Assembly (NCBI GenBank): GCA_963662945.1 | Contig: OY759974.1 | Span: 2,240,001-2,304,000 of the forward strand | DNA: 64,000 nt | Direction: 5' to 3' | Source of the DNA: Arcobacteraceae bacterium | GTDB lineage: Bacteria > Campylobacterota > Campylobacteria > Campylobacterales > Arcobacteraceae | Shown here: one piece after another, positions 32,906-54,805 of the stretch | Layout of the letters: each line of letters begins with the position of its first letter | Numbering within the stretch: the first letter of the stretch is position 1 | Translations under genes and position numbers: made by a program | Notes under the pieces: generated by a model | What the model saw: only the letters and a program-made list of their open reading frames with translations | Told to the model about the DNA's origin: nothing | Database searches by the model: none

Positions 32906-32917
32906 AAGATATATTAT

Positions 32918-35028: not shown

Positions 35029-35045
35029 TGTATATTTTTTATATA
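35029..35045. promoter_or_regulatory. TGTATA-N5-TATACA-type palindrome
   Basis: TGTATA-TTTTT-TATATA, 31 nt before TATAAT (35077). Confidence 0.55.
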
Positions 35046-35146
35046 TAAATGCGAGTTTTTTCTTGTTATTTTTTTATATAATGGTAACTTGTTTTACAAT
35101 ATGGTTTAGTGGTAAAACAGTAATTAATGGTAAATGTGGAAAAATA

Positions 35147-36349
35147 ATGTTAGATAAATTAATAAATGAAGATAGGATAGAGATACATTTTCAACCTATT
35201 GTATCTATGAAAGAAAATAGGATATTTGCATTTGAAGCACTCACTCGTGCTTATGATGAAAATAATGATTTTATATCTCCTCTTTTTCTTTTTGAACATG
35301 CAAGGAAAGAAAATCGTTCAGTTGAATTAGATGATTATGTAAGAAAGTTAGCATTGTATAAGTTTGTAGAGTATTATAGTAAAGATAACACATTATTACT
35401 CTTTTTAAATTTTGAAGCTTCTATGATAGATGAAGATGTAGGTTCTAGTTTTTTACAAAATATAGATAACTGTAAAATACCTTATCAAAATATAATAATT
35501 GAGATAAAAGAAGATAGTGTTCGAGATAACTATTTTCTGGAAAAATTTGTTTTAAAATACAGAAAATTAGGTTTTTTGATTGGTGTAGATGACTTTGGTA
35601 CTGGATATTCAAGTTTTGATAGACTTGCTTTGATTAAGCCAGATATTGTGAAGCTTGATAGGTCTTTAATCTATAATATTCAAAACAATTATATTAATTC
35701 TGAGATTCTTACTTCAATCTCAAATATGTGTCATAAAATAGGTGCAGTAGTATTAGCAGAAGGTGTTGAACAAAATGATGAGATACTCACTTGTATGACA
35801 AAAGATATTGATATTTATCAAGGTTTTTTCTTTTCTAAAGCACAAGATATTATTGATACAAAGATTATACAATTAGTAGAAAATAAGATAAATGAGATAC
35901 AAAAAGGGTATAAATTACTTTTACAAGACTATTATGAAAAAGAAAAAAAGCTCTTAAAAAGATCAAAAAAGATTATCAAAAAAACTTTAGATATTTTAAA
36001 TAGTGATACAAAAGATTATAGAAAACAAATAACAAAAATCATTCAAAATGACAGTCATATAGAAGCGATTTATCTCCTTGATTTGGAGACAGGATTACAA
36101 ATTGGTGATACGATTATAGAAGAAATAAATCAAAGATTATTATACAGTCCTACAAATGATGGTCATGACCATAGTTTTAAAGAATATTACTTATATACAA
36201 AAGATTCTAAAAATAAAGAATATTTGACAGATAAATATATTTCTAAAGCTACAGGTAATATGTGTAATACATATTGTTTAAAAATTAAGCTGCAAGAAGT
36301 AGATTATATCTTATGTTGCGATATTGTTGATGAAAAAAATATGATGTAG
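35147..36349 (+). CDS. EAL c-di-GMP phosphodiesterase with C-terminal sensor-like domain
   Basis: FQPI, EAL, DDFGTGYSS, KLD, AEGVE, YQG; ATG 35147 preferred. Confidence 0.9.
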   Translation: MLDKLINEDRIEIHFQPIVSMKENRIFAFEALTRAYDENNDFISPLFLFEHARKENRSVELDDYVRKLALYKFVEYYSKDNTLLLFLNFEASMIDEDVGSSFLQNIDNCKIPYQNIIIEIKEDSVRDNYFLEKFVLKYRKLGFLIGVDDFGTGYSSFDRLALIKPDIVKLDRSLIYNIQNNYINSEILTSISNMCHKIGAVVLAEGVEQNDEILTCMTKDIDIYQGFFFSKAQDIIDTKIIQLVENKINEIQKGYKLLLQDYYEKEKKLLKRSKKIIKKTLDILNSDTKDYRKQITKIIQNDSHIEAIYLLDLETGLQIGDTIIEEINQRLLYSPTNDGHDHSFKEYYLYTKDSKNKEYLTDKYISKATGNMCNTYCLKIKLQEVDYILCCDIVDEKNMM

Positions 36350-36358
36350 TTAGCTACA

Positions 36359-37933
36359 TTATAGAATCTCCTCAATTGAAAGTTGTGATAAAACTCTATT
36401 ATCAAAACTTTCAAAACTTTCAAACTCCTCTTTTTCATCTCTATATTTTATCATGAGTGTTTTTACAATATATTTTGCTTTTTCCAAAGGAACTGCTTTT
36501 GCTAATACTCTTGCTTCTTTAGCTTCAAGTGTTGCTTTTCCACCTAAAAAGATATGAACTCCATAACACGAGTTGCCATCTTCATCTTTTGCTTTACAGC
36601 CTTCAAAACCTATATCTGCAACTCCATGAATTCCACAACCTTTGACACATCCTGACCAATACATTCTTACTTTTCCATTTTTTATAGGAACTTCATGGGC
36701 TAAAAAGTTTGCCATCTCTATGGCATCTGGTTTATTTGGTATTACTGCAAATGCACAAGTTGCCGTTCCTGCACAAGCTATTTGATGGTTGAAATAGATA
36801 TTATTATACGGTTTATATTCTTTGAATAAATCACTATTTTGCACAATTTCAGTGTGATTTTTATCTGTGATAATATATAAACTTTGTTCAACAGAAAGTC
36901 TTATTTTCCCATCAACCATTGAAGATAAATGACCAATTTTTGTTAAATCAGAACCTTTAAAAATACCACTTGGAATACTGAAGTGTACTGCTTTTAAATT
37001 TTCACTTAAATTAAATATTCCACTTTCATCTAGGATATATTCCTCTTTCGCCAATATCTCACCACTATTTTGATAGTTGATATTTGTTGTTTCTTTTATA
37101 GCGTTTACAAATTCATTCATACCTACAGCTTCTAGTAAAAAGTGTAATCTATTTTTATTTCTATTGTCTCTAAATCCATATTTTTTAAATAGTTCTACTA
37201 CAGCTTTAAAGGTTGGTATAATCTCATCCTTTTTTATAAAAAGACCTGTATTTGTTGCTTGGACACCAACTTTCCCACCAAGATAAAGATTAAAACCTAT
37301 CTCTTCATCTTTTTTAGCAACGATAAAACAACAATCGTGTCCATAAATATTACAATCATTTGTATCTGTTCCCAAGATTGCTGTATTAAATTTTCGTGGC
37401 AGTGTCGCTATCCACTCCTCTTTTTTGAAAAATATTTGTTGCAGTTCATCAATGATTGGTTTACATACTATAATATTTTTATCTCCTAAACCATCAAAAC
37501 TACTAGTAACAATATTTCTAAAGTTATCAACACCAGTTTGAAAAGTAGAAATCCCCACACTATCAAGTTCTTGTAATACTGTATTTAAGTGTTTTAGTTC
37601 TAAAAATCTAAATTCAAGTTGTTGTCTAGTTGTTATATCTATATAATCTTCCCCATATTGAGTGGATATTTTACCCAGTTTTATAGCTTGCTCTGGAGTT
37701 AATTGACCTGCTGGGATACGAATACGAAGCATAAACTTTCCATCTTTTTTTAAAAACAGTCCAAAACATTTTAAGAAAAAACTACTATCTTCATCAGACA
37801 AATTTTCTAAACCATTAGCACAAATTGTATCTAGCTTTTCATAGACACTCATAGGTGTTTTTAGTTTTTTAATATCTTCTATTTTATTGATTTTTTTATT
37901 TCTAAGCGTATATGCTTCTTCTAATACTTTCAT
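36359..37933 (-). CDS. nirA: Ferredoxin-nitrite reductase (siroheme)
   Basis: MLRIRIP, ITTRQQ, LPRKFN, CAG..TC, SGCVKGCG; nitrate cluster context. Confidence 0.88.
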   Translation of the reverse strand: MKVLEEAYTLRNKKINKIEDIKKLKTPMSVYEKLDTICANGLENLSDEDSSFFLKCFGLFLKKDGKFMLRIRIPAGQLTPEQAIKLGKISTQYGEDYIDITTRQQLEFRFLELKHLNTVLQELDSVGISTFQTGVDNFRNIVTSSFDGLGDKNIIVCKPIIDELQQIFFKKEEWIATLPRKFNTAILGTDTNDCNIYGHDCCFIVAKKDEEIGFNLYLGGKVGVQATNTGLFIKKDEIIPTFKAVVELFKKYGFRDNRNKNRLHFLLEAVGMNEFVNAIKETTNINYQNSGEILAKEEYILDESGIFNLSENLKAVHFSIPSGIFKGSDLTKIGHLSSMVDGKIRLSVEQSLYIITDKNHTEIVQNSDLFKEYKPYNNIYFNHQIACAGTATCAFAVIPNKPDAIEMANFLAHEVPIKNGKVRMYWSGCVKGCGIHGVADIGFEGCKAKDEDGNSCYGVHIFLGGKATLEAKEARVLAKAVPLEKAKYIVKTLMIKYRDEKEEFESFESFDNRVLSQLSIEEIL

Positions 37934-39189
37934 ATTATTTCCTTATTAAAAATTGAATTAAATTTTACTACATCCCCAAAAACCAAGATAGCTGGTCTCT
38001 CCATCTCTTCTGAATCAGCTACAAGATTTTTTAAAGTTGTTGTAACTACTTTTTGATTTTGTCTACTTGCATTTGAAACAACTGCACAGAGTTTATTTTG
38101 TGAAATATCTAGTTTTAAAGACTCTTGTACTATCTCTTTTGCACGACTAAGTCCCATCAAAACTACAACAGTATGATTTTCTTTTTTGAGAAGCTCTACC
38201 CAGTCAAGATTTATACTATTTCCTTTTAGATGTGCAGAAACTACAGTAAAACCAGCTGCATATCCACGAGCTGTTATGGGAATACCTGCTGTTGAACATC
38301 CACTGATACTTGAACTAATACCAGGAATAACTTCTGTAGGTATTTGTTCATTGATTAAATCTTGTAATTCTTCAGCACCTCTACCAAATACAAAAGGATC
38401 TCCACTTTTAAGTCTTGCTACACTTAATCCCATTTTTGCATATTTGATGATGAGTGCATTTATCTCTTCTTGAGATTTACTATGAAAATCTTTTTGTTTC
38501 CCTACAGATATTTTAAGTGTGTCTTTTGGAACTATTTGCATAATTTCATCACTAATTAAATGATCATATAAAACTACATCAACAGTTTTAATGATATTGT
38601 GTGCTTTGATTGTCAAAAGTTCTACATCGCCTAAACCGCAACCTACTAAATACACTTGTGTTTTTAAAGTGTTTAGCTCTTTTTGTGTTTGTTGAACATC
38701 AATAATTCCAGCATCTCTTTGCTGTTGTTTTTTTTCTAAATAGCTTTTTATATCTTTTGGGATAAGTTTTGCACATTCATCACGAAAATATTTTGCAGCA
38801 GTTGGTGAAGCTCCATTTGATGATACAGCTATTTGTAAAGGCTTATTTGGGGTTAATGCCATAAAATAAAAGTCACAATATTCTGGTACATCCACTACAT
38901 TAAGTAAAATATTATGAGTTTTTTTATAGTTTAATAATTTGTCGGCTACTTTAGGATTGCCCGTTGCATCTATAATAATATAGAACTCTTTTATATCCTT
39001 TAATATAAACTTTTTTTTGATGATATTATTTGTAGTTTCTAAAATTTCATTTTTAAAAGTATTACTAATAATAGTAAACTCTATATCATTCTCTTTTAGT
39101 ACAGTAGCTTTTTGTAAAGCTACATTTCCTCCACCAATTAGTAAAATCTTTTGATTTTTTAAAAGTATTGGTAATGTTTTATTTTTCAC
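37930..39189 (-). CDS. cysG: Siroheme synthase (dehydrogenase/chelatase + uroporphyrinogen-III methyltransferase)
   Basis: IGGGNVA, NVVD.P..CDF, LVGCG.GD..LLT, RLKSGDPFVFGRG.EE. Confidence 0.9.
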   Translation of the reverse strand: MKNKTLPILLKNQKILLIGGGNVALQKATVLKENDIEFTIISNTFKNEILETTNNIIKKKFILKDIKEFYIIIDATGNPKVADKLLNYKKTHNILLNVVDVPEYCDFYFMALTPNKPLQIAVSSNGASPTAAKYFRDECAKLIPKDIKSYLEKKQQQRDAGIIDVQQTQKELNTLKTQVYLVGCGLGDVELLTIKAHNIIKTVDVVLYDHLISDEIMQIVPKDTLKISVGKQKDFHSKSQEEINALIIKYAKMGLSVARLKSGDPFVFGRGAEELQDLINEQIPTEVIPGISSSISGCSTAGIPITARGYAAGFTVVSAHLKGNSINLDWVELLKKENHTVVVLMGLSRAKEIVQESLKLDISQNKLCAVVSNASRQNQKVVTTTLKNLVADSEEMERPAILVFGDVVKFNSIFNKEII

Positions 39190-39272
39190 AACTTTTCCCT
39201 TAAGTAATATTGAACTATAATAATTTAGTAAGAGTATTCTAACATTAATTTAATGTAAAATTAATATTATAT

Positions 39273-39289
39273 TGTATATTAAATATATA
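39273..39289. promoter_or_regulatory. TGTATA-N5-TATACA-type palindrome between divergent cysG and nitrate transporter promoters
   Basis: TGTATA-TTAAA-TATATA; 31 nt to TAGAAT (minus, 39241) and 31 nt to TATACT (plus, 39321). Confidence 0.7.
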
Positions 39290-39374
39290 AATTATTTGAT
39301 AATAATTTAAAAATAGCTGTTATACTTACAATATCAAATAATATTTAATGATAAATTAAGATTAGGAATGAAAA

Positions 39375-40655
39375 ATGGCAGGATTTAAAGATTTAAAAGG
39401 ACAAGGACATGCACCAACGCTGTTTATGGCTTTTTTGTATTTCGATATGAGTTTTATGGTTTGGACTATGTTAGGTCCTTTAAGTACAGAGATAACAGAA
39501 GCTTTAGCAATGGCAGGTCATCTTATGACAGCAGGAGAAAAAGCAACACTTTTATCACTTCCTATATTAGCTGGTGCAATTTTACGAATAGTGTTAGGAT
39601 TTGGTGTAGATAAGTTTGGTGCTAAAAAAACAGCACTATTATCACAAGGTATTGTAATAGCTGCTCTTTTAACAGCATATTTACAAGGAAATAGTATCAC
39701 ATACAATCAACTTCTTATAGTTGCTCTTGGACTTGGATTTGCTGGGGCTAGTTTTGCTGTTGCATTACCGCAAGCTGGACAATGGTATCCTCCAAAACTT
39801 CAAGGGGTTGTTTTAGGAATTGCAGGGGCAGGAAATATTGGAGTAGTTATTGACTTCTTGTTTGCACCAAAAATTGCAGAACTTTGGGGATGGGAGTCTG
39901 TATTTGGCGTAGGTGCTTTGATGGCTATTATTGTATTTGTAGCATATTTCTTTTTAGCACAAGATGCACCAGAATCTGTATATAAAGCAAACCCAAAAAG
40001 ATTAAAAGATTATGTTAAACTTTTAAAAGATAAAGATACTTGGTGGTTCAATTTATTCTATGCTGTAAGTTTTGGTGGATTTGTAGGGTTTGCGGGATAT
40101 ATGAAAGTATATTTGATGAATACTTATAGTGTAGATATGTCTGCATTTGGATTAGATTTTCTTGATGAAGGAAATGTAAAAGTTGTTGCTGGATATTTTG
40201 GAGCATTATGTATCTTTGCAGGAGCTGTTTTAAGACCTGTTGGTGGTGCCGTTGCTGATAAATTAGGTGGGGTAAAATCTTTATACTTTTTCTATGGAAC
40301 TGTGGCATTATTGGCTATAATTAATGCAACAATTACACTTCCTTTTGGTATAGCTATTTTTGTATTGTTTTTAATTATGGCAAATCTTGGTATGGCAAAT
40401 GGAGCAGTATTTCAACTAGTACCTCAAAGATTTGGAAAAGATATTGGAATTATGACAGGTATTGTTGGATGTGCTGGTGGTTTAGGTGGAACAGCACTTA
40501 TTAAAACTCTTGGGTGGTCAAAAGGTGCTTTTGATGGATATACAGCTGGACTTATAATATTTGCTTGTGTTGTTTTAGTTGCAATCGCAGGAATTAGTTT
40601 GGTAAAAACAAGATGGAGAACAACTTGGGGAGTATCTGCTGGAGGAAGAATATAA
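39375..40655 (+). CDS. MFS nitrate/nitrite transporter (NarK/NasA family)
   Basis: GFAGASF...WYP...G.AGAGNIG, FGGFVGF, RPVGG..AD, GMANGAVF. Confidence 0.92.
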   Translation: MAGFKDLKGQGHAPTLFMAFLYFDMSFMVWTMLGPLSTEITEALAMAGHLMTAGEKATLLSLPILAGAILRIVLGFGVDKFGAKKTALLSQGIVIAALLTAYLQGNSITYNQLLIVALGLGFAGASFAVALPQAGQWYPPKLQGVVLGIAGAGNIGVVIDFLFAPKIAELWGWESVFGVGALMAIIVFVAYFFLAQDAPESVYKANPKRLKDYVKLLKDKDTWWFNLFYAVSFGGFVGFAGYMKVYLMNTYSVDMSAFGLDFLDEGNVKVVAGYFGALCIFAGAVLRPVGGAVADKLGGVKSLYFFYGTVALLAIINATITLPFGIAIFVLFLIMANLGMANGAVFQLVPQRFGKDIGIMTGIVGCAGGLGGTALIKTLGWSKGAFDGYTAGLIIFACVVLVAIAGISLVKTRWRTTWGVSAGGRI

Positions 40656-40674
40656 AAAATAATAGTAGGTTAAA

Positions 40675-42309
40675 ATGAAAAATACAAATATGCATATTTC
40701 TGGATTCACACTTGCTAAAGGAAAAGAACTAGTAGGGGATGATTTTTATGATGTAAAAAACATAGAAAATCTTACTATTGGAATAGTTTGTGACGGTGTT
40801 GGAAGTGCCCAAGAGGGAAGAGTTGCTGCAAAAAGAGTAGTGAATCACCTTATGACAAACTTTAAAAATAGACCACAGGCGTGGTCTATAGAAAAATCTA
40901 TTAAAAAATTTATAACTTCAATTAATGCAATTTTATATCAAGAATCTATGGTAAATTATGAAAGACCAGAACTTGTAACAACGCTTACTATTATTGTAAT
41001 AGAGGGAAATAGACTTTATGGGGCAAATGTTGGAGATAGTAGAGTATATCTTTTAAGAGAAGAAAAACTTACGCAACTTTCTCTAGATCATTCAATGGAA
41101 GAATCAGGATATGAAAATGTTCTTACCCAAGCAATAGGAATAGAAAAAGATGTAGCACCTTATTATTTTGAAAATATAATTCAAAAAGATGACAAAATTC
41201 TTCTATGTAGTGATGGTTTATATAACATTATGAGTGAAAATAGACTTGAATCTGGAATACCACTTGGAGCAAATTCACTCGTAAAAAAAGCAAGTTCTCT
41301 TATGGAAGATAATCTCCCTGATGATACAACAGCTGTTATTTTACAAGTACAAGAAGTGAGTTTACTAGAAGAATTAAAAAAACAAAAACTAGCAATACCG
41401 ACAATCCTAAAAGCTGGGGATGAAATAGATGGTTATATTTTAGAAAAATCTCTTATTCAAAATAATAGAACATGGTTATGTACTAAAAATAAAAAACAAT
41501 ATGTTTTGAAATTTGCTCCAACGGAGGCACTTGAAGATAAAGCTATCTTAGACCTTTTTGTACAAGAAGCTTGGAATGCCAAAAGATTAAAAGCTGGATT
41601 TTTTCCAAAAGCAGTTATTCCGAAAAAAAGAACATGCAGATATTATGTCATGGAAGCTCTTGATGGAGTTGATTTAAAAACATATTTGAAAAAAAGAGTT
41701 TTAAGTGTAGATGAGTCGATAAATCTCGCTAAAACACTTTTAAAAATGTCTCAATATCTTATAAAATTTGATTTAGTGCATGGGGATATAAAACCTGAAA
41801 ATATTATGATTACAAAGAGAGCTGATAAAAAATTCTTTAAAATTATAGATTTTGGAAGTATCACAGAAGTATATAGTATCAACTCAAAAGCAGGAACTCC
41901 CTCATATCTTTCTCCTCAAAGATTTCAGGGGGATGCGATAAGTGAAACAAGTGAAATTTTTTCTATAGGGGTAACTCTTTATGAATCTTTGACAAAAAAG
42001 TTTCCATACGGAGAGATAGAACCTTTTCAAAATCCTACTTTTAAACAAGCAAAATCATTAAAAGAGTTAAATAATAAAATTCCACATTGGCTAGATAGTG
42101 TGATATTACGAAGTATAGCTATAGAGGAACAAAACAGATATAAAAACTATTCAAATATGATGTATGAGTTAGAAAATACTCAAAAGGTAAAACCGTATTT
42201 TAATAAAAATGCGCCACTATTAGAAAAAAATCCACTTATGGTGTATAAAGTTGGATTTTATTTGATGTTAGTTATAAATTTTTTTATGTTTTTAATGTAT
42301 CACAAGTAG
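40675..42309 (+). CDS. Fused PP2C phosphatase / Hanks-type Ser/Thr kinase
   Basis: CDGVG, VGDSR, CSDG, DD (PP2C); HGDIKPEN, IDFG, GTPSY (kinase); C-terminal TM. Confidence 0.9.
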   Translation: MKNTNMHISGFTLAKGKELVGDDFYDVKNIENLTIGIVCDGVGSAQEGRVAAKRVVNHLMTNFKNRPQAWSIEKSIKKFITSINAILYQESMVNYERPELVTTLTIIVIEGNRLYGANVGDSRVYLLREEKLTQLSLDHSMEESGYENVLTQAIGIEKDVAPYYFENIIQKDDKILLCSDGLYNIMSENRLESGIPLGANSLVKKASSLMEDNLPDDTTAVILQVQEVSLLEELKKQKLAIPTILKAGDEIDGYILEKSLIQNNRTWLCTKNKKQYVLKFAPTEALEDKAILDLFVQEAWNAKRLKAGFFPKAVIPKKRTCRYYVMEALDGVDLKTYLKKRVLSVDESINLAKTLLKMSQYLIKFDLVHGDIKPENIMITKRADKKFFKIIDFGSITEVYSINSKAGTPSYLSPQRFQGDAISETSEIFSIGVTLYESLTKKFPYGEIEPFQNPTFKQAKSLKELNNKIPHWLDSVILRSIAIEEQNRYKNYSNMMYELENTQKVKPYFNKNAPLLEKNPLMVYKVGFYLMLVINFFMFLMYHK

Positions 42310-42324: not shown

Positions 42325-44304
42325 TTATATCTTCTCAATCTTCACAGCACTATGATTATAGTCAGGCTCTAGTGAATCTTTATCTAGTAAGTCATTTGTT
42401 AAATAGTTTACATCTCTATTACTTATGGGGATAAAAAGTGTTTTTTCTCTGATAGTATCAGTGATAAGTGCTTTTGTGAGAAGTTCTCCTCTACTTGAAA
42501 GTACTTTTATTTCATCGCCATCTTTTATATTAAGTTCTTCTGCATCATTTGGATTAATTTCACAAAAATTTAGTTCTTTAAACTTTAAAAGTGTTGTAGG
42601 AAGATTTGTTTTTGTTCCAGAGTGCCATTGGTCTCTTGTACGACCTGTTAGAAGTATAAAAGGGTATTTTAATGAGGCTTTTTCACTTAAAAGCTTATTT
42701 TCTACAAAGTGAAGATTTCCTTTTTTGTCAGGTGTTAGAAACTCCTTAATTCTTTGTCCCCAAATAAATGGCTCATTTGAGAGAGTATCATAAGAAGCTT
42801 CATGGATATTCATATATGAGTTTAGTTTTGTCATTGCTTGGAACTCTTCAAATATCTCTTTAGGACTATTGTAATTAAAATATCTTTTGAAGCCAAGTTT
42901 TTGAGCAATAAGTTGAAAAATTTCCCAATCTGGTTTACAATCTATAGATATACGGGTAAGTTTTTCTTGTTTTGTGATAGTTCTATCAAGATTTGTTTGT
43001 GTTCCCTCTTTTTCTCCCCAAGGAGCAGCTGGAAGTCTTATATGTGCATATTTTGCAGTTTCACTATTTTCATAAGCATTGATTTCTACGATAAATGGTA
43101 TTTTCTTGATAAGTTCTTCACTTCTGTTTCTATTTGGAAGATGATAAATAGGGTCTGTGTGACACACTATTAAAACATCTAAGTTGGCTTCTAGCATCTG
43201 AGTTGCTGTGAGTCCTGCTTTATTGTCAATTTTATCTGTTTGCCAAAATTCACTCACTTTTTTGATACTTTCATTATCAAACCCTAGATGAACAGCCAAC
43301 ATTGTAGATAATCCACCAACTTCTCGTCCACCCATAGCATTTGGCTGTCCAGTTAAACTTAAAGGACCATTTCCAGCTTTAAAAATTTTCCCAGTAAGAA
43401 GATGTGTATTGATAAGACTTAAGTTTTTATCTACCCCTTGACTTGATTGATTCAGTCCCATAGTCCAAGCAGTGATAATATTGGGACTATTTTTATATAG
43501 AGTCCAAAATTCTTCAAACTGTTCAGCTGATAAACCTGTTCTTTTTAACATTTTAGTTACAGGTACTCTTTTGAATTTATTTTTGAGAAGTTCAAAATTA
43601 TTAATATAATTTTCTACAAATTCTTTATCATAAAGTTCTTCATCTATCAATCTTTTACTTACAAGATTAAAAAAGTCTATATCACTTCCTACTCTTAAAG
43701 GGATATATATATCTGCAATTTTTGCAGTTTCAGTATATCTAGGGTCAATTACGACAATTTTTAAACCCTCTTTTTTTGCTTTTTTTATTTGATTGTGAAA
43801 AACTACATGAGCTTCAGCAGTATTTGCCCCTGCAAGGATAAGTAAATCACTTTTAAAAATATCATTCATTCGTACAGGTACAAAGTCTGCACCTATAGAT
43901 TTTTTATAAGCTACAACTGCAGATGCCATACAAGTTCTACTATTTGTATCTACATTATTTGTTCCTATGAAACCTTTACAAAGCTTGTTTGCTATATAGT
44001 AATCTTCTGTTAAAAGCTGTCCTGAAAGATAAAAACCTATTTTATCTTTTGGTGTAGTTTTGATTTTGTCTGCAATTATACTAATAGTATCTTCCCAAGT
44101 TGATATTTTATATTCATCGTTTATATCTTCTCTTATATGAGGTCTTAAAAGTCGTGTTGGTGTTTGGATACTTATAAGTTCAGAGATTCCTTTACTACAA
44201 AGTTTTCCTTCATTAGTTGGATAAGTGACATCTCCTAATAGTTTATGTTCATCATATTCTAACCCACAACCTACACCACAATATCCACAAACAGATTTAA
44301 TCAT
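42325..44304 (-). CDS. Assimilatory nitrate reductase catalytic subunit (Mo-bisPGD; NarB/NasA-like)
   Basis: CGYCGVGCG...LC, SGQLLTEDYY, DTNSRTCM, TGQPNAMGGREVG, TGR.RDQWH. Confidence 0.93.
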   Translation of the reverse strand: MIKSVCGYCGVGCGLEYDEHKLLGDVTYPTNEGKLCSKGISELISIQTPTRLLRPHIREDINDEYKISTWEDTISIIADKIKTTPKDKIGFYLSGQLLTEDYYIANKLCKGFIGTNNVDTNSRTCMASAVVAYKKSIGADFVPVRMNDIFKSDLLILAGANTAEAHVVFHNQIKKAKKEGLKIVVIDPRYTETAKIADIYIPLRVGSDIDFFNLVSKRLIDEELYDKEFVENYINNFELLKNKFKRVPVTKMLKRTGLSAEQFEEFWTLYKNSPNIITAWTMGLNQSSQGVDKNLSLINTHLLTGKIFKAGNGPLSLTGQPNAMGGREVGGLSTMLAVHLGFDNESIKKVSEFWQTDKIDNKAGLTATQMLEANLDVLIVCHTDPIYHLPNRNRSEELIKKIPFIVEINAYENSETAKYAHIRLPAAPWGEKEGTQTNLDRTITKQEKLTRISIDCKPDWEIFQLIAQKLGFKRYFNYNSPKEIFEEFQAMTKLNSYMNIHEASYDTLSNEPFIWGQRIKEFLTPDKKGNLHFVENKLLSEKASLKYPFILLTGRTRDQWHSGTKTNLPTTLLKFKELNFCEINPNDAEELNIKDGDEIKVLSSRGELLTKALITDTIREKTLFIPISNRDVNYLTNDLLDKDSLEPDYNHSAVKIEKI

Positions 44305-44394
44305 TTTCTTTTCCCTTTATATCTTTATTATTATATCTTTAAAAAATTATAAAATGATTATACCATACTAATTAATGAAAAATTAAGAATATAA

Positions 44395-44411
44395 TGTATA
44401 TAAATTATACA
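44395..44411. promoter_or_regulatory. Perfect palindrome TGTATA-N5-TATACA between divergent nitrate reductase and ABC promoters
   Basis: TGTATA-TAAAT-TATACA; 32 nt to TATAAT (minus, 44362) and 32 nt to TATACT (plus, 44444). Confidence 0.75.
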
Positions 44412-44490
44412 ATAAAGCTGTATATTCTTTTTTAAAATTAATGTATACTTCCCTTATTAAACATTTATAATGTAAATTTAAGGAGAAAAA

Positions 44491-45870: not shown

Positions 45871-45975
45871 TCTTTTGACTATTTTGTAATCGTAAAAGGT
45901 ATATTTTAATATGTATCTAGGTTAGATGTATATTAAAGATATATCTTAAAATTCAAATCAAAGTAAAGGAAAAAA

Positions 45976-46791
45976 ATGAATAAAGAAATTCTAAAAAAAA
46001 TACTGTTACCACTTGTGGTATTTATAGTAATCATTCAGATTTGGTCTGGTATAGCACAAGTTGTTAATGGCTTTCCAACACCAACAAATACTTATGTTGC
46101 AGCTTTTGGTGGAGAAACAACTGATGGAGAGGTATTAAAAGGTGTTTTAGCGGATCCATTTTATATAGAAAACCAAGATGATAAAGGGATTTTTTGGCAA
46201 ATCTTAGAATCACTTAAAAGAGTATTTGGAGGTTTTGCATTAGCTATTATTGTAGGTGTTCCTGTTGGATTATTTATAGGTATGAGTAAAAGTGCTCAAT
46301 ATGCGTTTGACCCATTCATACAAATACTCAAACCAGTGTCTCCACTTGCTTGGTTGCCATTATTGTTGTTTATTTTCAAAGATATTAATTTAACAGCAAT
46401 TTCAACTATATTTATTACTTCTATTTGGCCAATTATTATTAATACAGCTTTAGGTGTACGAAGTGTCAATGAAGATTATATGAATGTTGCAAAAGTTTTA
46501 AGATTTACACCTTTAGAAAAAGTCATTCAAATAATTTTACCAGTGGCTATTCCATTTATCTTTACAGGTATGAGACTAAGTCTTGGTATTGCTTGGCTTG
46601 TTATTGTCGCTGCTGAGATGTTAACAGGTGGTATAGGTATAGGTTTTTGGATATGGGATGAGTACAATAATTTAGCCTATGCAAATATTATTATAGGGAT
46701 TATTATAGTTGGTATAGTTGGATTTATGTTGGATTTAGTTATGGGTAAAATAGCAGATTTCTTTGATTATAGAAAAAAAGGTAGAGCGTAA
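45976..46791 (+). CDS. nrtB: Nitrate ABC transporter permease
   Basis: SLKRV, PVSPLAWLP, WLVIVAAEM. Confidence 0.92.
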   Translation: MNKEILKKILLPLVVFIVIIQIWSGIAQVVNGFPTPTNTYVAAFGGETTDGEVLKGVLADPFYIENQDDKGIFWQILESLKRVFGGFALAIIVGVPVGLFIGMSKSAQYAFDPFIQILKPVSPLAWLPLLLFIFKDINLTAISTIFITSIWPIIINTALGVRSVNEDYMNVAKVLRFTPLEKVIQIILPVAIPFIFTGMRLSLGIAWLVIVAAEMLTGGIGIGFWIWDEYNNLAYANIIIGIIIVGIVGFMLDLVMGKIADFFDYRKKGRA

Positions 46792-47585
46792 TGGAAAAAA
46801 AGTTTTTAAGTTTAGAAAATATTGAGAAAAGATTTCCAATTCCAGGAAAAGATGATTATGTGGCTGTTACAAATGTAAATTTAGAGATTAGAAAAGATGA
46901 GATTATCTCTATTATTGGACACAGTGGATGTGGAAAATCTACTTTATTAAATATGATATCAGGTCTTGATGCACAAACTGATGGTCACATCATATTAGAA
47001 AATAAAGAGGTAAAAGGACCAGGTCCAGATAGAGCAGTTGTATTTCAAAACCATTCATTACTTCCATGGTTAAGTGTATATCAAAATATTGAAATGGCTG
47101 TGAAAAAAGTGATGCCAGAACTTTCTAGTAAAGAGTTACGAGATAGGGTAGAAAAATATATTTCTATGGTCAATCTTGATCATGCAAAAGATAAAAAACC
47201 AGATGAGATAAGTGGTGGTATGAAACAAAGAGTTGGTATTGCTAGAGCATTATCAATTTCTCCAAAAGTATTACTTATGGATGAACCATTTGGTGCTTTA
47301 GATAGTTTAACAAGAGCAAATCTTCAAGAACATCTTATGAGAATACAAGAGAAAGCAAAAAATACAGTTATTATCATAACACATGATATTGATGAAGCTG
47401 TACTTTTAAGTGATAGAGTTATTATGATGACAAATGGTCCAGAAGCTACTATTGGTGAAATATTGGAAGTTAATTTAGAGAGACCAAGAGACAGAGTAGC
47501 TTTACAAACTGATCCAGAATATATTAGATGTAGAGAAGCAATCTTAAGTTTTCTTTATGAAAAATTTGCAAAAGAGGATGAGTAG
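46791..47585 (+). CDS. Nitrate ABC transporter ATP-binding protein
   Basis: GHSGCGKST, SGGMKQR, DEPFGALD. Confidence 0.92.
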   Translation: MEKKFLSLENIEKRFPIPGKDDYVAVTNVNLEIRKDEIISIIGHSGCGKSTLLNMISGLDAQTDGHIILENKEVKGPGPDRAVVFQNHSLLPWLSVYQNIEMAVKKVMPELSSKELRDRVEKYISMVNLDHAKDKKPDEISGGMKQRVGIARALSISPKVLLMDEPFGALDSLTRANLQEHLMRIQEKAKNTVIIITHDIDEAVLLSDRVIMMTNGPEATIGEILEVNLERPRDRVALQTDPEYIRCREAILSFLYEKFAKEDE

Positions 47586-48881: not shown

Positions 48882-49763
48882 TTAAAATTCATCTGCTTGT
48901 TTTTTTTCTAAAATTGAACTTTGGGTTATACTTTTATAAAAATATGCCAAACCTATAAACATAATCGTTGTACCAAACAATAAATAAAAAGCAGAATCCA
49001 TATTTTTATAGTCATCTAAAGTGATTTTAAAAACAACCATTAAAGTTTCAATAGATAAAGCAATAATAATTGAGATTAAAAATTTCCCCAAAACCTTATA
49101 TTGTCTATCATTTGCATGACTAAAAGAGTGAAAAATAACCTCATGTTCAAATATTTGTTTTGCCAAATCAAAAATAGCAATCCCCAATGTAACTGATATT
49201 ATAGCTTTAAAGGTTGTTTCAAAAAAGTCAAAACCTAGAGGATTTGTTGTCATTGTCATAAAAGTATATCCACCATGACCAATTAAAACAATAGAAATAA
49301 TCCCTAACATAAAAGAACCGAAAATATAAATGAGTCTTTTGAACTTGTCATAGGTACTGTTATAATCAATAAGTTTTAATTCTTCAAGTAAATGTATCAA
49401 ATTAAAATCAAAGATATAATAACTGTCATTTTGTTTTTTTACAACTGATAAACTTGCTTTTCCCGTCCTATAATGGATATATGGATTTGAGATATAAATA
49501 TTGTCTTTATTTAAATCTAATCTCATAAAATAGTGACTTTTATCACTTTCCAAATGCATCTCATCGACACTTTTTCTACAAATCACTGGGCTACTTTGTT
49601 TATAGTTTTCATCTACACTATAAAGTAATTGAATATATCTGTTATTATCTAAAATATATTTAGAGTTTTTGATATAATCATCTGGCAAAGTTTTAATAAC
49701 AATTGAAATAAAATTGTCAACATTTATCTTGTGCTTTTTGTATATGTTTATCACTTCTCTCAT
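48882..49763 (-). CDS. PglG-like protein (N-terminal PDC-like sensor + 4 TM)
   Basis: ISNPY, AIFDLAK.IFE.EV, SIIIALSIE.LM.VFK recall Campylobacter PglG. Confidence 0.65.
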   Translation of the reverse strand: MREVINIYKKHKINVDNFISIVIKTLPDDYIKNSKYILDNNRYIQLLYSVDENYKQSSPVICRKSVDEMHLESDKSHYFMRLDLNKDNIYISNPYIHYRTGKASLSVVKKQNDSYYIFDFNLIHLLEELKLIDYNSTYDKFKRLIYIFGSFMLGIISIVLIGHGGYTFMTMTTNPLGFDFFETTFKAIISVTLGIAIFDLAKQIFEHEVIFHSFSHANDRQYKVLGKFLISIIIALSIETLMVVFKITLDDYKNMDSAFYLLFGTTIMFIGLAYFYKSITQSSILEKKQADEF

Positions 49764-49846
49764 GGTATCTCCTTTGTAGTATTTTGTTCAAAGATACGCA
49801 AGAATTTCTAAATAAGACATAAACTATCTTATTTAATTTAATTTTA

Positions 49847-50308
49847 TTAGTTTGAAGATTTTTTTTTGAGAAGCTGTCTATAAACAATCATATCAGAAAA
49901 TTGAAAATTTAGATTTTCATAAAATTGATGTGCTTTATAGTTATCTTTATCTGTTAGAAGTGTGATTCTTTGTATTTGTTTTTTTGTGAGATATTTTATA
50001 GTATATTGTAAAAGTTTTGTTCCCACAGACTTTCCTCTGTGTTTAGGTGTTATTATCATATCTTCTAGAAGTGCAACAGTACCTCCAAGTGCAGAACTTA
50101 TCGTATAAAGTATATTTACACAACCTATGATTTTTTCTTTTTTAACTACAACAAATATCTCACCAATATCATTGTTATTGATTATTTTTCGTAAAGCTTT
50201 TTTATGAAGTTTTTTATTGAAAACAAATTCTACCTCTTGGGTAAAAAGATGATATAAAAGCTTTGTAATAGCTTTGATATCTTCTGATGTAGCTTTTCGT
50301 ATTGTCAC
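49847..50308 (-). CDS. GNAT acetyltransferase
   Basis: LEDM...RGKSVG..LL, A..FY..L.F. Confidence 0.88.
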   Translation of the reverse strand: MTIRKATSEDIKAITKLLYHLFTQEVEFVFNKKLHKKALRKIINNNDIGEIFVVVKKEKIIGCVNILYTISSALGGTVALLEDMIITPKHRGKSVGTKLLQYTIKYLTKKQIQRITLLTDKDNYKAHQFYENLNFQFSDMIVYRQLLKKKSSN

Positions 50309-50739
50309 TATTTTAACATTTTAAAAATTTTTGGAGTTACTGCTAAATCGATAGCTTTAAATCCATCAAGATTTTCGATAGTTTTGTTCGCACCAGCTTC
50401 AAGAAGTAGTTTTACCATATCTTCTTTCCCTGCACTTGCACTATACATTAAAGCGGTAACTCCATTGTCATTCATTTTATCTAGATTTATTCCTGCATTT
50501 ACCAGTAATTCAACACAAGTGTAATCTTGTCCAAAACAAGCATTCCAAAGTGCTGTATTTCCATCTACATTTGTAATTTCTAAGTCTGGTTTTGTATCTA
50601 GTATCTCTTTTGCTATATCACTTCTAGCTTCTCTTACAGCTTTCATTAAAGCACTGTTTCCATGTTTTCCAACTTTGTTGATATCATTTTTATCGTAGTC
50701 ATTTTCTTCTAGCCATTGTAGTGTTGTGTTACTAAACAT
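50308..50739 (-). CDS. Small ankyrin-repeat protein
   Basis: GNSALM, GNTALWNAC, GVTALMYSASAG repeats. Confidence 0.9.
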   Translation of the reverse strand: MFSNTTLQWLEENDYDKNDINKVGKHGNSALMKAVREARSDIAKEILDTKPDLEITNVDGNTALWNACFGQDYTCVELLVNAGINLDKMNDNGVTALMYSASAGKEDMVKLLLEAGANKTIENLDGFKAIDLAVTPKIFKMLK

Positions 50740-51139: not shown

Positions 51140-51145
51140 AATGAG

Positions 51146-51643
51146 TTACACGCCCATCCAGTTTTCATGGGTGTGTCCTTTTTGCTTAAATTTGATTGCA
51201 GCATCTAAAGCTGTATCAAAATTTTCGATATCAAATTCAGTTGTTAAATTTGGTACAATCTCTTTATATACGATTTCACCCTCTTTGTTGATGATAAAAA
51301 TTGATTTTGCACAAAGGGTATCGTTAACATTCACACCCATTTTAAGACTAAAATCTTTAAAATCACTAGAAGTGTCAATATTCTCTAACATTTTTGTAAT
51401 AGGTTGCGCACTAATAATGTAAGTTAATGATTTTGCAATATGTTTATTTATAACATTAAGAAAATCATCTGTAAGGCTTTCTTCATTTGGTACAGAGATA
51501 AGAACTTGTACTTTACTTGCCATCATTCCAATTACTTTTGTTTCTCCATTATCCATTTTTACTCGTATTGCAGGTGCTTCACTTCCTATAGATCGCTCTT
51601 TTTTTTGTAAAACAACTTTTTGATTATCTATTTCTATTTCCAA
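51146..51643 (-). CDS. Tpx-like redoxin apparently lacking the peroxidatic Cys
   Basis: G.EAP, ISVP, IFIINKEG.IVYKEIVP Tpx features; TTG 51643 after SD AAGGA preferred to 51745. Confidence 0.7.
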   Translation of the reverse strand: MEIEIDNQKVVLQKKERSIGSEAPAIRVKMDNGETKVIGMMASKVQVLISVPNEESLTDDFLNVINKHIAKSLTYIISAQPITKMLENIDTSSDFKDFSLKMGVNVNDTLCAKSIFIINKEGEIVYKEIVPNLTTEFDIENFDTALDAAIKFKQKGHTHENWMGV

Positions 51644-51680
51644 ATTATTATCCTTTTCATAATTTACTATACTTAAGTTA

Positions 51681-51696
51681 TGCAATATATGTACCA
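51681..51696 (-). promoter_or_regulatory. Sigma54-type promoter of tpx-like/hemerythrin/ankyrin/GNAT operon
   Basis: TGGTAC-ATATA-TTGCA (GG-N10-GC). Confidence 0.7.
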
Positions 51697-51881
51697 ATGG
51701 AATAGATTTTGTATATATCAAAAATGTAAATGAGTATATTGGCAAACAAATCCGCAGTTACCATATACTAAAACTAAACTTCAATATACTCATTTTACCA
51801 AACTAATTAGATAAATCTTAAAATGAATATGAAATATGATTGATTTTGAGATTTATCTAAAATCAAAAACAGGAGAAAAAT

Positions 51882-52268
51882 ATGGCAGTATTAATAACAG
51901 ATGAATGTATAAATTGTGAGGCATGTGCAGGTGAGTGTCCTGTTGCAGCAATTTTAGAAGATTCTAACGAAAAAAATCCAAGTGATGATAAATTTTATGT
52001 AAAACCTGAGTCTTGTGTTGAGTGTGTAGGTCATGCTGATGCACCAAGATGTGTTGAAGCCTGTCCAACAGAAGGTGCAATCGTATGGGATATGCCATAT
52101 ACAGCAGAGTTTAACGAATACTTCAAAGAGAGAAATGAAGCTGGTATTTACAATATTAGAGAACACAAGAAAAAAGGTCTTATGCTTCCAGAAGTAAAAG
52201 CGCAACCATATATGGAAGAGATTTCAATGAGTGATAGAGAATCTCATGCAAATATAGGAGAATGGTAA
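51882..52268 (+). CDS. 2[4Fe-4S] ferredoxin with C-terminal extension (FdxN-like)
   Basis: CINCEACAGECP and CVEC-x8-CVEACP. Confidence 0.9.
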   Translation: MAVLITDECINCEACAGECPVAAILEDSNEKNPSDDKFYVKPESCVECVGHADAPRCVEACPTEGAIVWDMPYTAEFNEYFKERNEAGIYNIREHKKKGLMLPEVKAQPYMEEISMSDRESHANIGEW

Positions 52269-52269
52269 G

Positions 52270-52650
52270 ATGTCAGTATATATTACAGACAGTTGTATAA
52301 ACTGTGATGCATGTATAGAAGAGTGTCCAGCAACTGCGATCGTAAGTGCGGATGAATCACCATTAGCAGATGCTGAATTTACTTATGTAAAACCTGAAAA
52401 ATGTATTGAATGTGTAGATACAACAATACCAAAATGTGCTGAAGTATGTCCTACAGAAGGGTGTATTGTATGGGATATGCCTTATACTGAAGAATATGAC
52501 TCATACTATTTAGATGGACAAGAAAATGGAATCTATAGTATTAGAGTTCATAAGAAAAATGGGATTTTAAGCCCAGCAAATCAACCTCGACCTTTTAGAG
52601 AGTCTATCTCTATAGAAGACAGAGAAGCTAAAATGGCTGTAGAGGTTTAA
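52270..52650 (+). CDS. 2[4Fe-4S] ferredoxin, paralog of upstream gene
   Basis: CINCDACIEECP and CIEC-x7-CAEVCP; shared WDMPYT tail. Confidence 0.9.
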   Translation: MSVYITDSCINCDACIEECPATAIVSADESPLADAEFTYVKPEKCIECVDTTIPKCAEVCPTEGCIVWDMPYTEEYDSYYLDGQENGIYSIRVHKKNGILSPANQPRPFRESISIEDREAKMAVEV

Positions 52651-52662
52651 TTATAAACTTCA

Positions 52663-52688
52663 ACTAGATAGTTTTCAAACTATCTAGT
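52663..52688. terminator. Hairpin after ferredoxin pair
   Basis: ACTAGATAGTTT-TC-AAACTATCTAGT perfect 12-bp inverted repeat. Confidence 0.65.
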
Positions 52689-52712
52689 ATAAATTCTTCC
52701 CATTATTTTTAT

Positions 52713-52729
52713 TGTATAAAATTTATTCA
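52713..52729. promoter_or_regulatory. TGTATA-N5-TATACA-type palindrome
   Basis: TGTATA-AAATT-TATTCA, 31 nt before -10 TACACT (52761). Confidence 0.6.
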
Positions 52730-52772
52730 TGATTCTCTTGGATATGTAACTCTATTATGTTACACTTTTATC

Positions 52773-53567
52773 ATGAAAAATATAATATTTACAGATCTAG
52801 ACGGAACATTTTTAAATCATCATAACTATTCTTTTGAAGAAGCACAAGAAGCACTTGCTATTATAAAGAAAAAAAAGATACCACTTGTTTTTACTACAAG
52901 TAAAACAAAAATTGAGGTAGAACAGTTACAAAAAAAAGTTGGTATAGTTGAACCTTTTATTGTAGAAAATGGTGCAGCACTTTTTATACCTAAAAACTAT
53001 CAAAACTTAGAGTTGGACTTTTTGAAAGACTTTGAAGAGTATAAAGTTTTAATATTTGGAAAGACTTATGAACAAATTTTGAACTTTTACAATCAATACA
53101 AAGATGAGTTTGGTATGCTTGGTTTTAGTGATATGGATGAAGATGAGATTGCTAAAGTTACTGGGCTTGAAATTCAAAATGCCAAATTTGCAAAACAAAG
53201 AGAATTTACAGAACCTTTTATTTTAAAAGATATTACAAAACTAGAAAAACTCAAAAATCTAGCTTCAACTTATAAAATTAAAATCACTCAAGGTGGTAGA
53301 TTTTTTCATCTTATTGGAGAAAAACAAGATAAAGGAATAGCAGTCAAAAAAACTATAGAACTTTTTGAAAAACTTTATGATGAAAAGATACACTCTCTTG
53401 CTCTAGGTGATGGAGAAAATGATATTAAGATGTTAGAAGTTGTAGATACCCCTATAGTAATCAAAGATTATAAAAATGAATATCTTAATATAAATTTACC
53501 CAATATGCAACAATCTACTTATCAAAGTAGTCAGGGATTTAATGAGATGATTTTAAAAAATGTGTAG
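52773..53567 (+). CDS. gpgP: Glucosyl/mannosyl-3-phosphoglycerate phosphatase (HAD-IIB)
   Basis: FTDLDGT, TSKT, ENG, REFTEPF, GGRF.H, GDGEND; cluster context. Confidence 0.85.
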   Translation: MKNIIFTDLDGTFLNHHNYSFEEAQEALAIIKKKKIPLVFTTSKTKIEVEQLQKKVGIVEPFIVENGAALFIPKNYQNLELDFLKDFEEYKVLIFGKTYEQILNFYNQYKDEFGMLGFSDMDEDEIAKVTGLEIQNAKFAKQREFTEPFILKDITKLEKLKNLASTYKIKITQGGRFFHLIGEKQDKGIAVKKTIELFEKLYDEKIHSLALGDGENDIKMLEVVDTPIVIKDYKNEYLNINLPNMQQSTYQSSQGFNEMILKNV

Positions 53568-54681
53568 AAAAGAAGAGCTAGAAAAAATCTATTTTCAAGC
53601 TGTAAAAGCAGTATTACCAAAAACGATTGTAAAAGAAAATCTACTTAAATATAAAGATAAAAAAGTCTATGTTTTTTCAATAGGAAAAGCTGGATTTGAT
53701 ATGGCAAAAGAGGCTGAGAAAGTATTGAAAAACAATATTTTAGGTGGTGTTGCTATCTCTAATAAAGAAGGTAAGTTAAAAAAGATAAAACATTTTACTT
53801 CTACACATCCACTTGTTTCTCAAAAAAGTGTTAAATCAGCTAAATTACTGCTTCAAGAGATTAAAAAACTCAAAAATACTGATAGTTTTATTTTCTTTCT
53901 AAGTGGTGGTGCTTCTGCTATGGTTGAGCTACCCAAAGATGGTATGAGTTTAAATGAATTTAAAAAAATATCTTCCAAACTTTTAACTTCTGGTATTGAT
54001 ATAAAAGAGTTAAATAAAGAGAGAAAAAAACTCTCACAAATAAAAGGTGGAAAGTTAGCAGATAAATTTAAAACCAAAAAAGGTGTTGTATTTGTTTTAA
54101 GTGATGTAATAGGGGATGATATGAACACTATAGGTTCTGCTCCTATGAATAATGGAAAGTTTACACATACACTTATAGGAAACAATACAAAAGCACTTCA
54201 AGAAGCTAAAAAATATATTTCATCTAAAGTAGAACATACAAAAATCATAACAACAACTTTGGATATGAATACTTCAGATGCTTCAAAATTTATTGAAAAA
54301 TGTATCAACAAATATGATAAACGATATAAAAGTTTTTCTTTACTTTTTGGTGGCGAAACAACTACAAAAGTAAAAGGAACTGGTAAAGGTGGAAGAAATC
54401 AAGAGTTAGCTTTAAAGCTACTAGTACAAAAAAGTATTACGAAAGATATCTCACTTTTATGTGCTGGAAGTGATGGTGGAGATGGAAACTCTGATGCTAC
54501 GGGTGCATTTGTTGATTTTGATATTTATAAAAAAATTGAACAAGAGAAGTTAAATCCAAAAGATTATTTAAAAAATAGTGATAGTAATACATTTTTTCAT
54601 AAATTAGGGTACGATTTTGTAACAGGAAAAACTGGTACAAATGTAATGGATTTTATAATAGTATTAAAAAAGCCTAATTAG
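53560..54681 (+). CDS. Glycerate kinase (MOFRL/GckA type)
   Basis: IGKA, HP, SGGASA, IKGG, SDV.GD, GGET, GGRNQE, TGTNVMD. Confidence 0.9.
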   Translation: MCRKEELEKIYFQAVKAVLPKTIVKENLLKYKDKKVYVFSIGKAGFDMAKEAEKVLKNNILGGVAISNKEGKLKKIKHFTSTHPLVSQKSVKSAKLLLQEIKKLKNTDSFIFFLSGGASAMVELPKDGMSLNEFKKISSKLLTSGIDIKELNKERKKLSQIKGGKLADKFKTKKGVVFVLSDVIGDDMNTIGSAPMNNGKFTHTLIGNNTKALQEAKKYISSKVEHTKIITTTLDMNTSDASKFIEKCINKYDKRYKSFSLLFGGETTTKVKGTGKGGRNQELALKLLVQKSITKDISLLCAGSDGGDGNSDATGAFVDFDIYKKIEQEKLNPKDYLKNSDSNTFFHKLGYDFVTGKTGTNVMDFIIVLKKPN

Positions 54682-54718
54682 TTTTTCTTGCATAATTATT
54701 ACAAGTTGATTACTGAAA

Positions 54719-54735
54719 TGTGTAGATTTTATACA
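54719..54735. promoter_or_regulatory. TGTATA-N5-TATACA-type palindrome
   Basis: TGTGTA-GATTT-TATACA, 32 nt before TATAAT (54768). Confidence 0.65.
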
Positions 54736-54805
54736 TCTCTTCTATTTTCTATAGAGGTTAATGTTGTTATAATCTATACATAAAAAAATGTAAGGTGAAT
54801 ATATT

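Follow-up and report, generated by a model that had tools for sequence, protein, structure and literature searches.

Among the nitrogen-control systems closest to the one described here, TnrA of Bacillus activates promoters read with the housekeeping sigma factor from one site some 50 bp 5' of the transcription start, in a regulon that includes nitrate/nitrite assimilation and amtB-glnK, and NtcA binds a site centred near -41.5, about 22 nt before the -10 hexamer. In Proteobacteria the same kinds of genes are under the control of NtrC (PMC5343134), and that large comparative study of proteobacterial regulons leaves epsilonproteobacterial genomes out as being without orthologues of the regulators it covers, NtrC included (PMC5343134). 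Here we describe a palindrome, TGTATA-N5-TATACA, in a 64,000-nt stretch of an Arcobacteraceae bacterium (contig OY759974.1, positions 2,240,001 to 2,304,000; GC content about 29%; hereafter the window, meaning the whole stretch analysed), and propose that it is probably the operator of a nitrogen-responsive regulator that activates transcription in free-living Campylobacterota (Arcobacteraceae, Sulfurovum, Sulfurimonas and relatives). A search of open-access papers and bioRxiv, supplements excluded, returned nothing on this motif or on a Campylobacterota nitrogen regulator.

An initial annotation of the window had described five copies of the palindrome, and all five are present with zero or one mismatch; they are also the only matches to TGTATA-N5-TATACA with at most one mismatch in the 64 kb. 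The scores given below come from a matrix trained on 145 sites from other genomes, with the window excluded.

44395..44411: palindrome TGTATATAAATTATACA, perfect (0 mismatches), common to the divergent nasA and nrtA promoters; matrix score 22.3
39273..39289: palindrome TGTATATTAAATATATA, 1 mismatch, common to the divergent cysG-nirA and narK promoters; matrix score 15.0
35029..35045, plus strand: site TGTATATTTTTTATATA, 1 mismatch, 5' of the EAL phosphodiesterase gene; matrix score 15.8
52713..52729, plus strand: site TGTATAAAATTTATTCA, 1 mismatch, 5' of gpgP and the glycerate kinase gene; matrix score 19.0, the window's second best
54719..54735, plus strand: weaker site TGTGTAGATTTTATACA, 1 mismatch, 5' of gpgS, the GH13 phosphorylase-like gene, galU and pgi; matrix score 8.2

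Whole-window shuffles yielded a mean of 0.81 matches with at most one mismatch, and none of 100 reached the five observed. As an AT-matched control we used the window's own intergenic DNA (31 segments, 4,356 nt, 22.7% GC), in which dinucleotide-preserving shuffles gave a mean of 0.0845 sites and a maximum of two, with 0 of 2,000 reaching five. At up to two mismatches the strict motif is not enriched in the window (15 seen, 10.04 expected, 5 of 100 shuffles reaching 15), and a two-mismatch copy at 45927-45943, between nrtA and nrtB, was set aside as chance, a score of at least 6 being found there in only 2 of 72 loci. The matrix ranks the sites at 44395, 52713, 35029 and 39273 first to fourth; a match in coding sequence at 36275 (score 9.9) falls between 39273 and the gpgS site. 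Resampled intergenic DNA is expected to hold 0.016 matches scoring at least 15 and 0.84 scoring at least 8.0, or 0.116 of the latter when a -10 hexamer at 31 or 32 nt is also required.

The sites stand at a fixed distance from -10-like hexamers, which we defined as TAnnnT with at least four of six matches to TATAAT, counting the gap from the gene-proximal end of the site. Such a hexamer lies at gap 31 or 32 on all seven gene-facing sides in the window, as the initial annotation had claimed; the density of these hexamers in intergenic DNA (0.044-0.046 per position) predicts about 9% of sides.

35077-35082, plus strand: EAL -10, TATAAT; gap 31
39321-39326, plus strand: narK/PP2C-kinase -10, TATACT; gap 31
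39236-39241, minus strand: cysG-nirA -10, TAGAAT; gap 31
44444-44449, plus strand: nrtA-nrtB-nrtD -10, TATACT; gap 32
44357-44362, minus strand: nasA -10, TATAAT; gap 32
52761-52766, plus strand: gpgP -10, TACACT; gap 31
54768-54773, plus strand: gpgS -10, TATAAT, preceded by TGT; gap 32

At both divergent loci the palindrome is equidistant from the two hexamers, at 31/31 nt (39273) and 32/32 nt (44395), and positions 39250-39290 and 44372-44412 are identical at 34 of 41 nt, both as first described. Two start codons bear on the hexamer assignments. The mechanically called EAL open reading frame begins with TTG at 35063 and would contain its own -10, and because of this we place the true start, probably, at ATG 35148; the protein is then about 400 aa long, in line with related proteins such as that of locus L012 (398 aa). 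The gpgP ATG (52773) comes 6 nt after the -10 and lacks a Shine-Dalgarno sequence, which points to a probably leaderless mRNA whose first base is the A of that codon; the position of the codon supports this -10 as real.

For comparison, species-representative genomes were scanned with NrtA, giving 80 loci of up to 21 kb (10 kb to either side of nrtA). The window NrtA-like protein is 73-93% identical over the best segment to the Arcobacteraceae, Sulfurovum and Sulfurimonas proteins, with no identical record. Seventy-six loci were scorable, with a called nrtA open reading frame and at least 120 nt upstream, and the motif was sought within 300 nt. TGWWTA-N5-TAWWCA, with at most one mismatch, is found 5' of nrtA in 69 of the 76, and in 52 of these 69 a -10-like hexamer also stands at gap 31 or 32. 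Sites occur in 23/24 Arcobacteraceae loci, 12/15 Sulfurovum, 17/19 Sulfurimonas/Sulfurimonadaceae, 1/1 Sulfurospirillum and 1/1 labelled Helicobacteraceae, and in 15/16 loci with higher-rank labels only. Over all loci and the window, together 1,267 kb, intergenic DNA makes up 146 kb and holds 183 of 269 motif matches. The consensus across genomes is a 17-bp element, TG-WW-TA-W5-TA-WW-CA, with about 97% A/T at the five central bases; positions 1, 2, 5 and 6 and their mirror positions are 95-98% invariant, figures that are partly circular. The half-site varies by lineage: Arcobacteraceae have TGTATA almost without exception, Sulfurovum mostly has TGATTA and Sulfurimonas has both, and 42 of 98 perfect sites combine half-sites of different types. 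The palindrome is thus a real conserved element and not AT-rich noise.

The spacing seen in the window recurs in the other genomes. Among 192 site-gene pairs, the candidate hexamers peak at gap 31, with 89, followed by gap 32, with 30; across gaps 4 to 64, no gap besides 31 holds more than 30. Overall, 120 of 193 pairs have a hexamer at 31 or 32, where about 9% are expected by chance (28 further pairs, less than 43 nt from the start codon, were left unscored for spacing). By gene, the counts are 54/86 for nrtA, 23/36 for nasA, 19/38 for narK, 6/6 for amt, 5/7 for the Fer4-DmsC electron-transfer subunit, 3/3 each for cysG and nirA, 3/6 for the porin and 0/2 for nirB, where an AATAAT at gap 31 fails for want of T at its first position. 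The dimer centre had been put near -52; the palindrome centre does lie about 40 bp before the first -10 base in many genomes and at many genes, and because the start is taken to be about 7 nt after the -10, it would fall near -52/-53.

The gene names of the initial annotation (EAL, nirA, cysG, nitrate MFS, nitrate reductase, nrtA, gpgP and gpgS) proved correct in Pfam/NCBIfam family scans, which are the basis of all gene identities listed here.

35063/35148-36349: EAL phosphodiesterase gene
36359-37933, minus strand: nirA; target gene
37930-39189, minus strand: cysG; target gene
39375-40655, plus strand: narK, a NarK-type MFS transporter; target gene
40675-42309, plus strand: PP2C-Ser/Thr kinase fusion; target gene
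42325-44304, minus strand: nasA-type molybdopterin nitrate reductase; target gene
44491-45870, plus strand: nrtA, an NMT1-type nitrate-binding protein; target gene
45976-46791, plus strand: nrtB; target gene
46791-47585, plus strand: nrtD; target gene
52773-53567, plus strand: gpgP-type phosphatase, MPGP family; target gene
53560-54681, plus strand: glycerate kinase; target gene
54806-56029, plus strand: GpgS; target gene
56029-57798, plus strand: sucrose-phosphorylase-like GH13 enzyme; target gene
57795-58634, plus strand: galU; target gene
58641-59897, plus strand: pgi; target gene
60000-61466: nifB

Motif matches are most numerous at nrtA (97), nasA (42) and narK (41), in a sample that is anchored on nrtA and therefore biased towards nitrate/nitrite genes. 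The palindrome is also found 5' of nirA, nirB, cysG, an AlgE-like porin and the Fer4-DmsC subunit gene, 5' of a focA-like transporter/cyanase operon in relatives, and 5' of an operon for a Tll0287-domain histidine kinase and an OmpR-family response regulator in loci L009 and L018; locus L002 has it arranged as in the cysG-nirA/narK region of the window. Sites with the same spacing had been predicted at amtB/glnK, and all six amt operons with readable upstream DNA carry one with a -10 at 31 or 32; they lie in L004, L032 and L041, as a tandem pair of amt-glnK operons per locus. Because amt-glnK, the cyanase operon and nirB carry the site, a regulon for nitrogen in general, and not for nitrate only, is supported by what the predicted operators precede. 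We note that in two loci (L004 13107-15195, L032 13230-15354) the palindrome separates the first amt-glnK operon from a large, divergently transcribed ankyrin-repeat gene, and in L004 it stands at 67-68 nt from both the amt and the ankyrin-gene start codons; ankyrin-repeat genes are also present in the window, at 25342-27888 and 50308-50739.

When set against known nitrogen-control sites, the palindrome differs from each of the three motifs with which it had initially been contrasted. The NtcA motif GTA-N8-TAC is absent both from the 113 distinct sites of other genomes and from the five in the window, the spacing here being N9, and the TnrA/GlnR motif TGTNA-N7-TNACA likewise fits 0/113 and 0/5; the NifA motif is TGT-N10-ACA, whereas the present sites are TGT-N11-ACA or TGA-N11-TCA. 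In position and gene content the closest system is nonetheless TnrA of Bacillus, and there are likenesses of form, in that TnrA/GlnR sites are also 17-bp two-fold elements with TG/CA ends and an A/T-rich centre, TGT-N11-ACA being the Arcobacteraceae form. The differences are that positions 5/13 are T/A here (98%) and A/T in TnrA, that the Sulfurovum form TGATTA is also without T3, and that the hosts are Campylobacterota; no MerR-family regulator turned up in the window or the 10 kb to either side of nrtA in the loci. In logic NtcA is closest, as a global nitrogen activator on -10-dependent promoters with nitrate/nitrite assimilation, ammonium transport and cyanase among its targets, but the gap of 31-32 nt to the -10 puts the present site about one helical turn further upstream.

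With NtrC and Fis the palindrome shares a 6-N5-6 architecture, G at -7, C at +7, an A/T centre and the TG-N13-CA geometry. It differs from an NtrC site, a remote enhancer, in lying close to the promoter at a constant distance, and in having no sigma54 -24/-12 elements: TGG-N8-TTGC with at most one mismatch was found in none of the five promoter regions, although the pattern is loose (210 matches) and only the positions of its matches were used. A sigma54-like TGGAAC-N5-TTGAA does occur at 59949-59963, about 50 nt 5' of nifB, and is the only nearby intergenic match; the nifB promoter seems to be of a different type from those of the palindrome-controlled genes. The Fis consensus is given as the 15-bp GNtYAaWWWtTRaNC where it is stated in PMC2816674. 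Its upper-case positions fit 88 of the 113 sites and three of the five in the window, and the full form 14 of 113; the consensus is degenerate and of low information in AT-rich DNA, and we treat the apparent Fis-type fit as a lead only. LysR-type boxes have T-N11-A within an interrupted dyad; TGTATA-type sites have T3...A15, TGATTA-type sites have A3...T15, and no LysR gene was adjacent in the scans. The geometry overall (17 bp, G at -7, C at +7, A/T-only centre) thus appears to resemble TnrA/GlnR-type and Fis/NtrC-type operators.

Two further elements accompany the palindrome at some promoters, a third half-site and a 16-nt sequence that we refer to as element E (CTTAAnTTTACATWAA).

44419..44424, plus strand: TGTATA, a third half-site 7 nt 3' of the palindrome (nrtA promoter, about -37 to -32)
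39297-39302: third half-site at the window narK promoter
44372..44387, minus strand: element E, read on the minus strand as CTTAATTTTTCATTAA, between the palindrome and the nasA -10
44467..44482, plus strand: element E, inverted (ATAATGTAAATTTAAG), directly adjoining the Shine-Dalgarno sequence in the nrtA 5' leader
39250..39265, minus strand: element E in the cysG-nirA promoter
39345..39360, plus strand: inverted element E in the narK 5' leader

At the nrtA promoters of relatives, a TGTATA or TGATTA matching the lineage's own type stands 6-7 nt 3' of the palindrome (a reading from alignments, uncounted), and the third half-site is also found at narK and some amt promoters; it is absent at gpgP, gpgS, EAL and nasA-type promoters. 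It may hold a second dimer or strengthen contact. In 29 of 34 nasA promoters element E occupies the stretch separating the palindrome from the -10, at a gap of 6-8 nt in 26 of the 29, and it occurs at nirA, cysG and Fer4-DmsC promoters as well. It is inverted in 35 of 64 nrtA 5' leaders, with 54-56 nt separating 26 of the 35 copies from the palindrome upstream and 9-10 nt from the ATG downstream, and in 3 of 23 narK leaders. The window holds only four copies with at most two mismatches, two per divergent region and 95 bp apart, and element E is absent from amt (0/6), porin, nirB, focA, gpgS and EAL promoters. As a hypothesis, element E could be the site of a nitrate/nitrite-specific co-regulator, for example a repressor bracketing the activator site.

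The most likely explanation for these patterns is that a dimeric helix-turn-helix regulator reporting nitrogen status would bind the palindrome on one face of the helix, and that the bound dimer, about 40 bp upstream of a -10 that is often of the extended type, would activate the housekeeping RNA polymerase when nitrogen is limiting, a single central dimer serving both promoters at the two divergent regions. Its predicted targets in the window would be the genes for nitrate/nitrite uptake and reduction and for sirohaem synthesis, the two glucosylglycerate operons and the EAL phosphodiesterase gene for cyclic di-GMP (c-di-GMP). Glucosylglycerate synthesis would then be switched on to provide a nitrogen-free anionic solute during nitrogen shortage. 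Glucosylglycerate genes reportedly respond to nitrogen in marine picocyanobacteria, and mycobacteria are said to accumulate glucosylglycerate under nitrogen stress; the mycobacterial GlnR context is different, in another phylum and with a GlnR of the OmpR family, and no cis element is shared.

The same sites could instead be repressor operators, bound when nitrogen is plentiful, with the half-site further downstream (about -37 to -32) acting co-operatively. Two-operator repression operates at some nitrogen promoters, nrtA, narK and some amt promoters have the third half-site 6-7 nt past the palindrome, and a missing -35 hexamer would say nothing for or against, since to our knowledge Campylobacterota housekeeping promoters are generally without a conserved -35 element. 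We nevertheless consider repression improbable. The strong site is entirely upstream of the core promoter, its distance from the -10 is constant to within 1 bp from gene to gene and genus to genus, central sites are equidistant from two divergent -10 hexamers, and the gpgP, gpgS, EAL and nasA-type promoters do without the third half-site altogether, features more typical of an activator touching RNA polymerase. A regulator specific to the nitrate/nitrite pathway would fit the preponderance of matches at nitrate/nitrite genes, but the anchoring of the loci on nrtA biases the sample in that direction, and the same spacing at 6/6 amt-glnK operons, the site at the cyanase operon and those preceding gpgP and EAL in the window make this very unlikely as an alternative to general nitrogen control; it is element E, at 29/34 nasA and 0/6 amt promoters, to which restriction to nitrate/nitrite genes belongs. 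We give almost no credence to the view that an inverted repeat in such AT-rich DNA is no protein site at all, and is instead a DNA or RNA hairpin, an AT-rich UP element or curvature. A hairpin was rejected, the arms being of different types and unable to pair in 42 of 98 perfect sites, which therefore look like pairs of protein half-sites; further, at divergent loci the palindrome precedes the -10 of either promoter and so is untranscribed, G/C at positions 2/16 is 95% invariant in 23%-GC DNA, the shuffle controls speak for a non-random element, and an Rfam scan of the window found one tRNA only, with no RNA family at the palindrome.

The extension of the regulon beyond nitrogen genes proper has to be weighed site by site. 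The gpgP and EAL sites are secure on sequence grounds, because they score 19.0 and 15.8 where only 0.016 matches of at least 15 are expected. The gpgS site is plausible yet marginal by itself: it scores 8.2, a level at which 0.84 chance matches are expected in intergenic DNA (0.116 with the -10 requirement), and the G at its position 4 has a frequency of 0.00 in the training sites. That this one site is a chance match, the nitrate-gene sites being real, is unlikely though it deserves some weight; that the gpgP and EAL sites are chance matches too, leaving glucosylglycerate partly or wholly outside the regulon, is less likely again, given their scores, the -10 at exactly 31 or 32 nt from all three sites, and the same-family EAL genes of other loci, which adjoin nrtD or share the nrtA site. 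We note also that bona fide narK sites in Aliarcobacter-labelled loci pair a perfect with a degenerate half. The proposal that one regulator joins nitrate assimilation to glucosylglycerate metabolism accordingly has a strong site at gpgP and a marginal one at gpgS behind it, and because no gpgS or gpgP homologue was found in any of the 80 loci, it applies to the window genome only.

Several points weigh against an activating nitrogen operator as the explanation. No site was found in 7 of the 76 nrtA upstream regions (L019, L043, L060, L062, L064, L075 and L080), and 73 of 193 site-gene pairs are without a -10-like hexamer at 31 or 32, although part of this shortfall seems to come from second sites or distant pairings (uncounted). 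The matrix training sites were chosen by the motif itself, with at most one mismatch, so that the frequencies at its specified positions are partly circular. The missing -35 is no evidence of activator dependence, because of the general character of promoters in this phylum noted above, and the gpgS site is within reach of chance. The links to glucosylglycerate and EAL come from the promoters of one genome, and we infer protein binding, activation, the nitrogen-limitation signal and the transcription starts from the DNA itself. Finally, the family scans described below found a gene for the regulator neither in the window nor in the 80 loci.

That no cognate regulator is encoded in the cluster had been noted initially and is borne out; nor is one consistently linked in the related loci, on the basis of Pfam/NCBIfam scans of the window open reading frames and 148 family representatives (47+76+25), about 200 families being outside the scan. 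The window encodes an AraC/GyrI-like protein (32033-32944) and an OmpR-type pair (13050-15408), and we see no case for either as the cognate regulator. The only recurrent regulator in the 80 loci is an OmpR-family response regulator with a Tll0287-domain kinase, beside nasA in four of them (L009 5618-7698, L018 401-2642, L011 1064-1792 and L059 6954-7628), and these proteins are candidates for the palindrome or for element E; the window response regulator (13050-13733) is only 24-29% identical to this nasA-adjacent family. Single regulators elsewhere are one Rrf2 gene (L051) and one MarR gene (L027), and NtrC-type activator signature motifs were found in none of the 1,100 open reading frames of the window and the 80 loci.

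Some neighbouring genes are of interest in their own right. The PP2C phosphatase-Ser/Thr kinase fusion adjoins narK or nrtD across the phylum (the family occurs in 25 loci and the window) and may be a post-translational regulator of nitrate transport or reduction. A membrane protein of about 290 aa without a Pfam family, encoded in the window at 48882-49763, about 1.3 kb from nrtD, is found in 10 loci (e.g., L068 13348-14208) and directly 3' of nrtD in several Sulfurimonas- or Sulfurovum-labelled ones. Just 5' of the gpgP site, a perfect, terminator-like 11-bp inverted repeat (52661-52689) follows two tandem genes for YfhL-like 4Fe-4S ferredoxins (51882-52650). The GH13 enzyme at 56029-57798, within the gpgS operon, scores 203 bits, short of the 334 bits required for sucrose phosphorylase, and could be a glucosylglycerate phosphorylase, in which case the gpg cluster would amount to a full glucosylglycerate cycle.

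Free-living Campylobacterota are major participants in nitrogen and sulfur cycling at vents and in sulfidic sediments and coastal waters. The element described here, a probable global nitrogen-control operator, is of a known kind, and what is new is its sequence, position and taxon. Our picture of the protein behind it is more tentative: it may be a global Campylobacterota nitrogen regulator that is no orthologue of NtcA, TnrA, GlnR, NtrC or AmtR, whose half-site has drifted between TGTATA and TGATTA and whose regulon is extended in the window genome to glucosylglycerate and c-di-GMP turnover. An operator with a defined position could serve as a regulon predictor for Campylobacterota genomes and metagenome bins and as bait for isolating the regulator, and the lineage shift between TGTATA and TGATTA could be used to find it by co-variation. 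The operator also offers a testable link between nitrogen status, the choice of compatible solute (glucosylglycerate) and c-di-GMP signalling, and should the regulator's family be new to nitrogen control, it would be one more independent bacterial solution to global nitrogen control.

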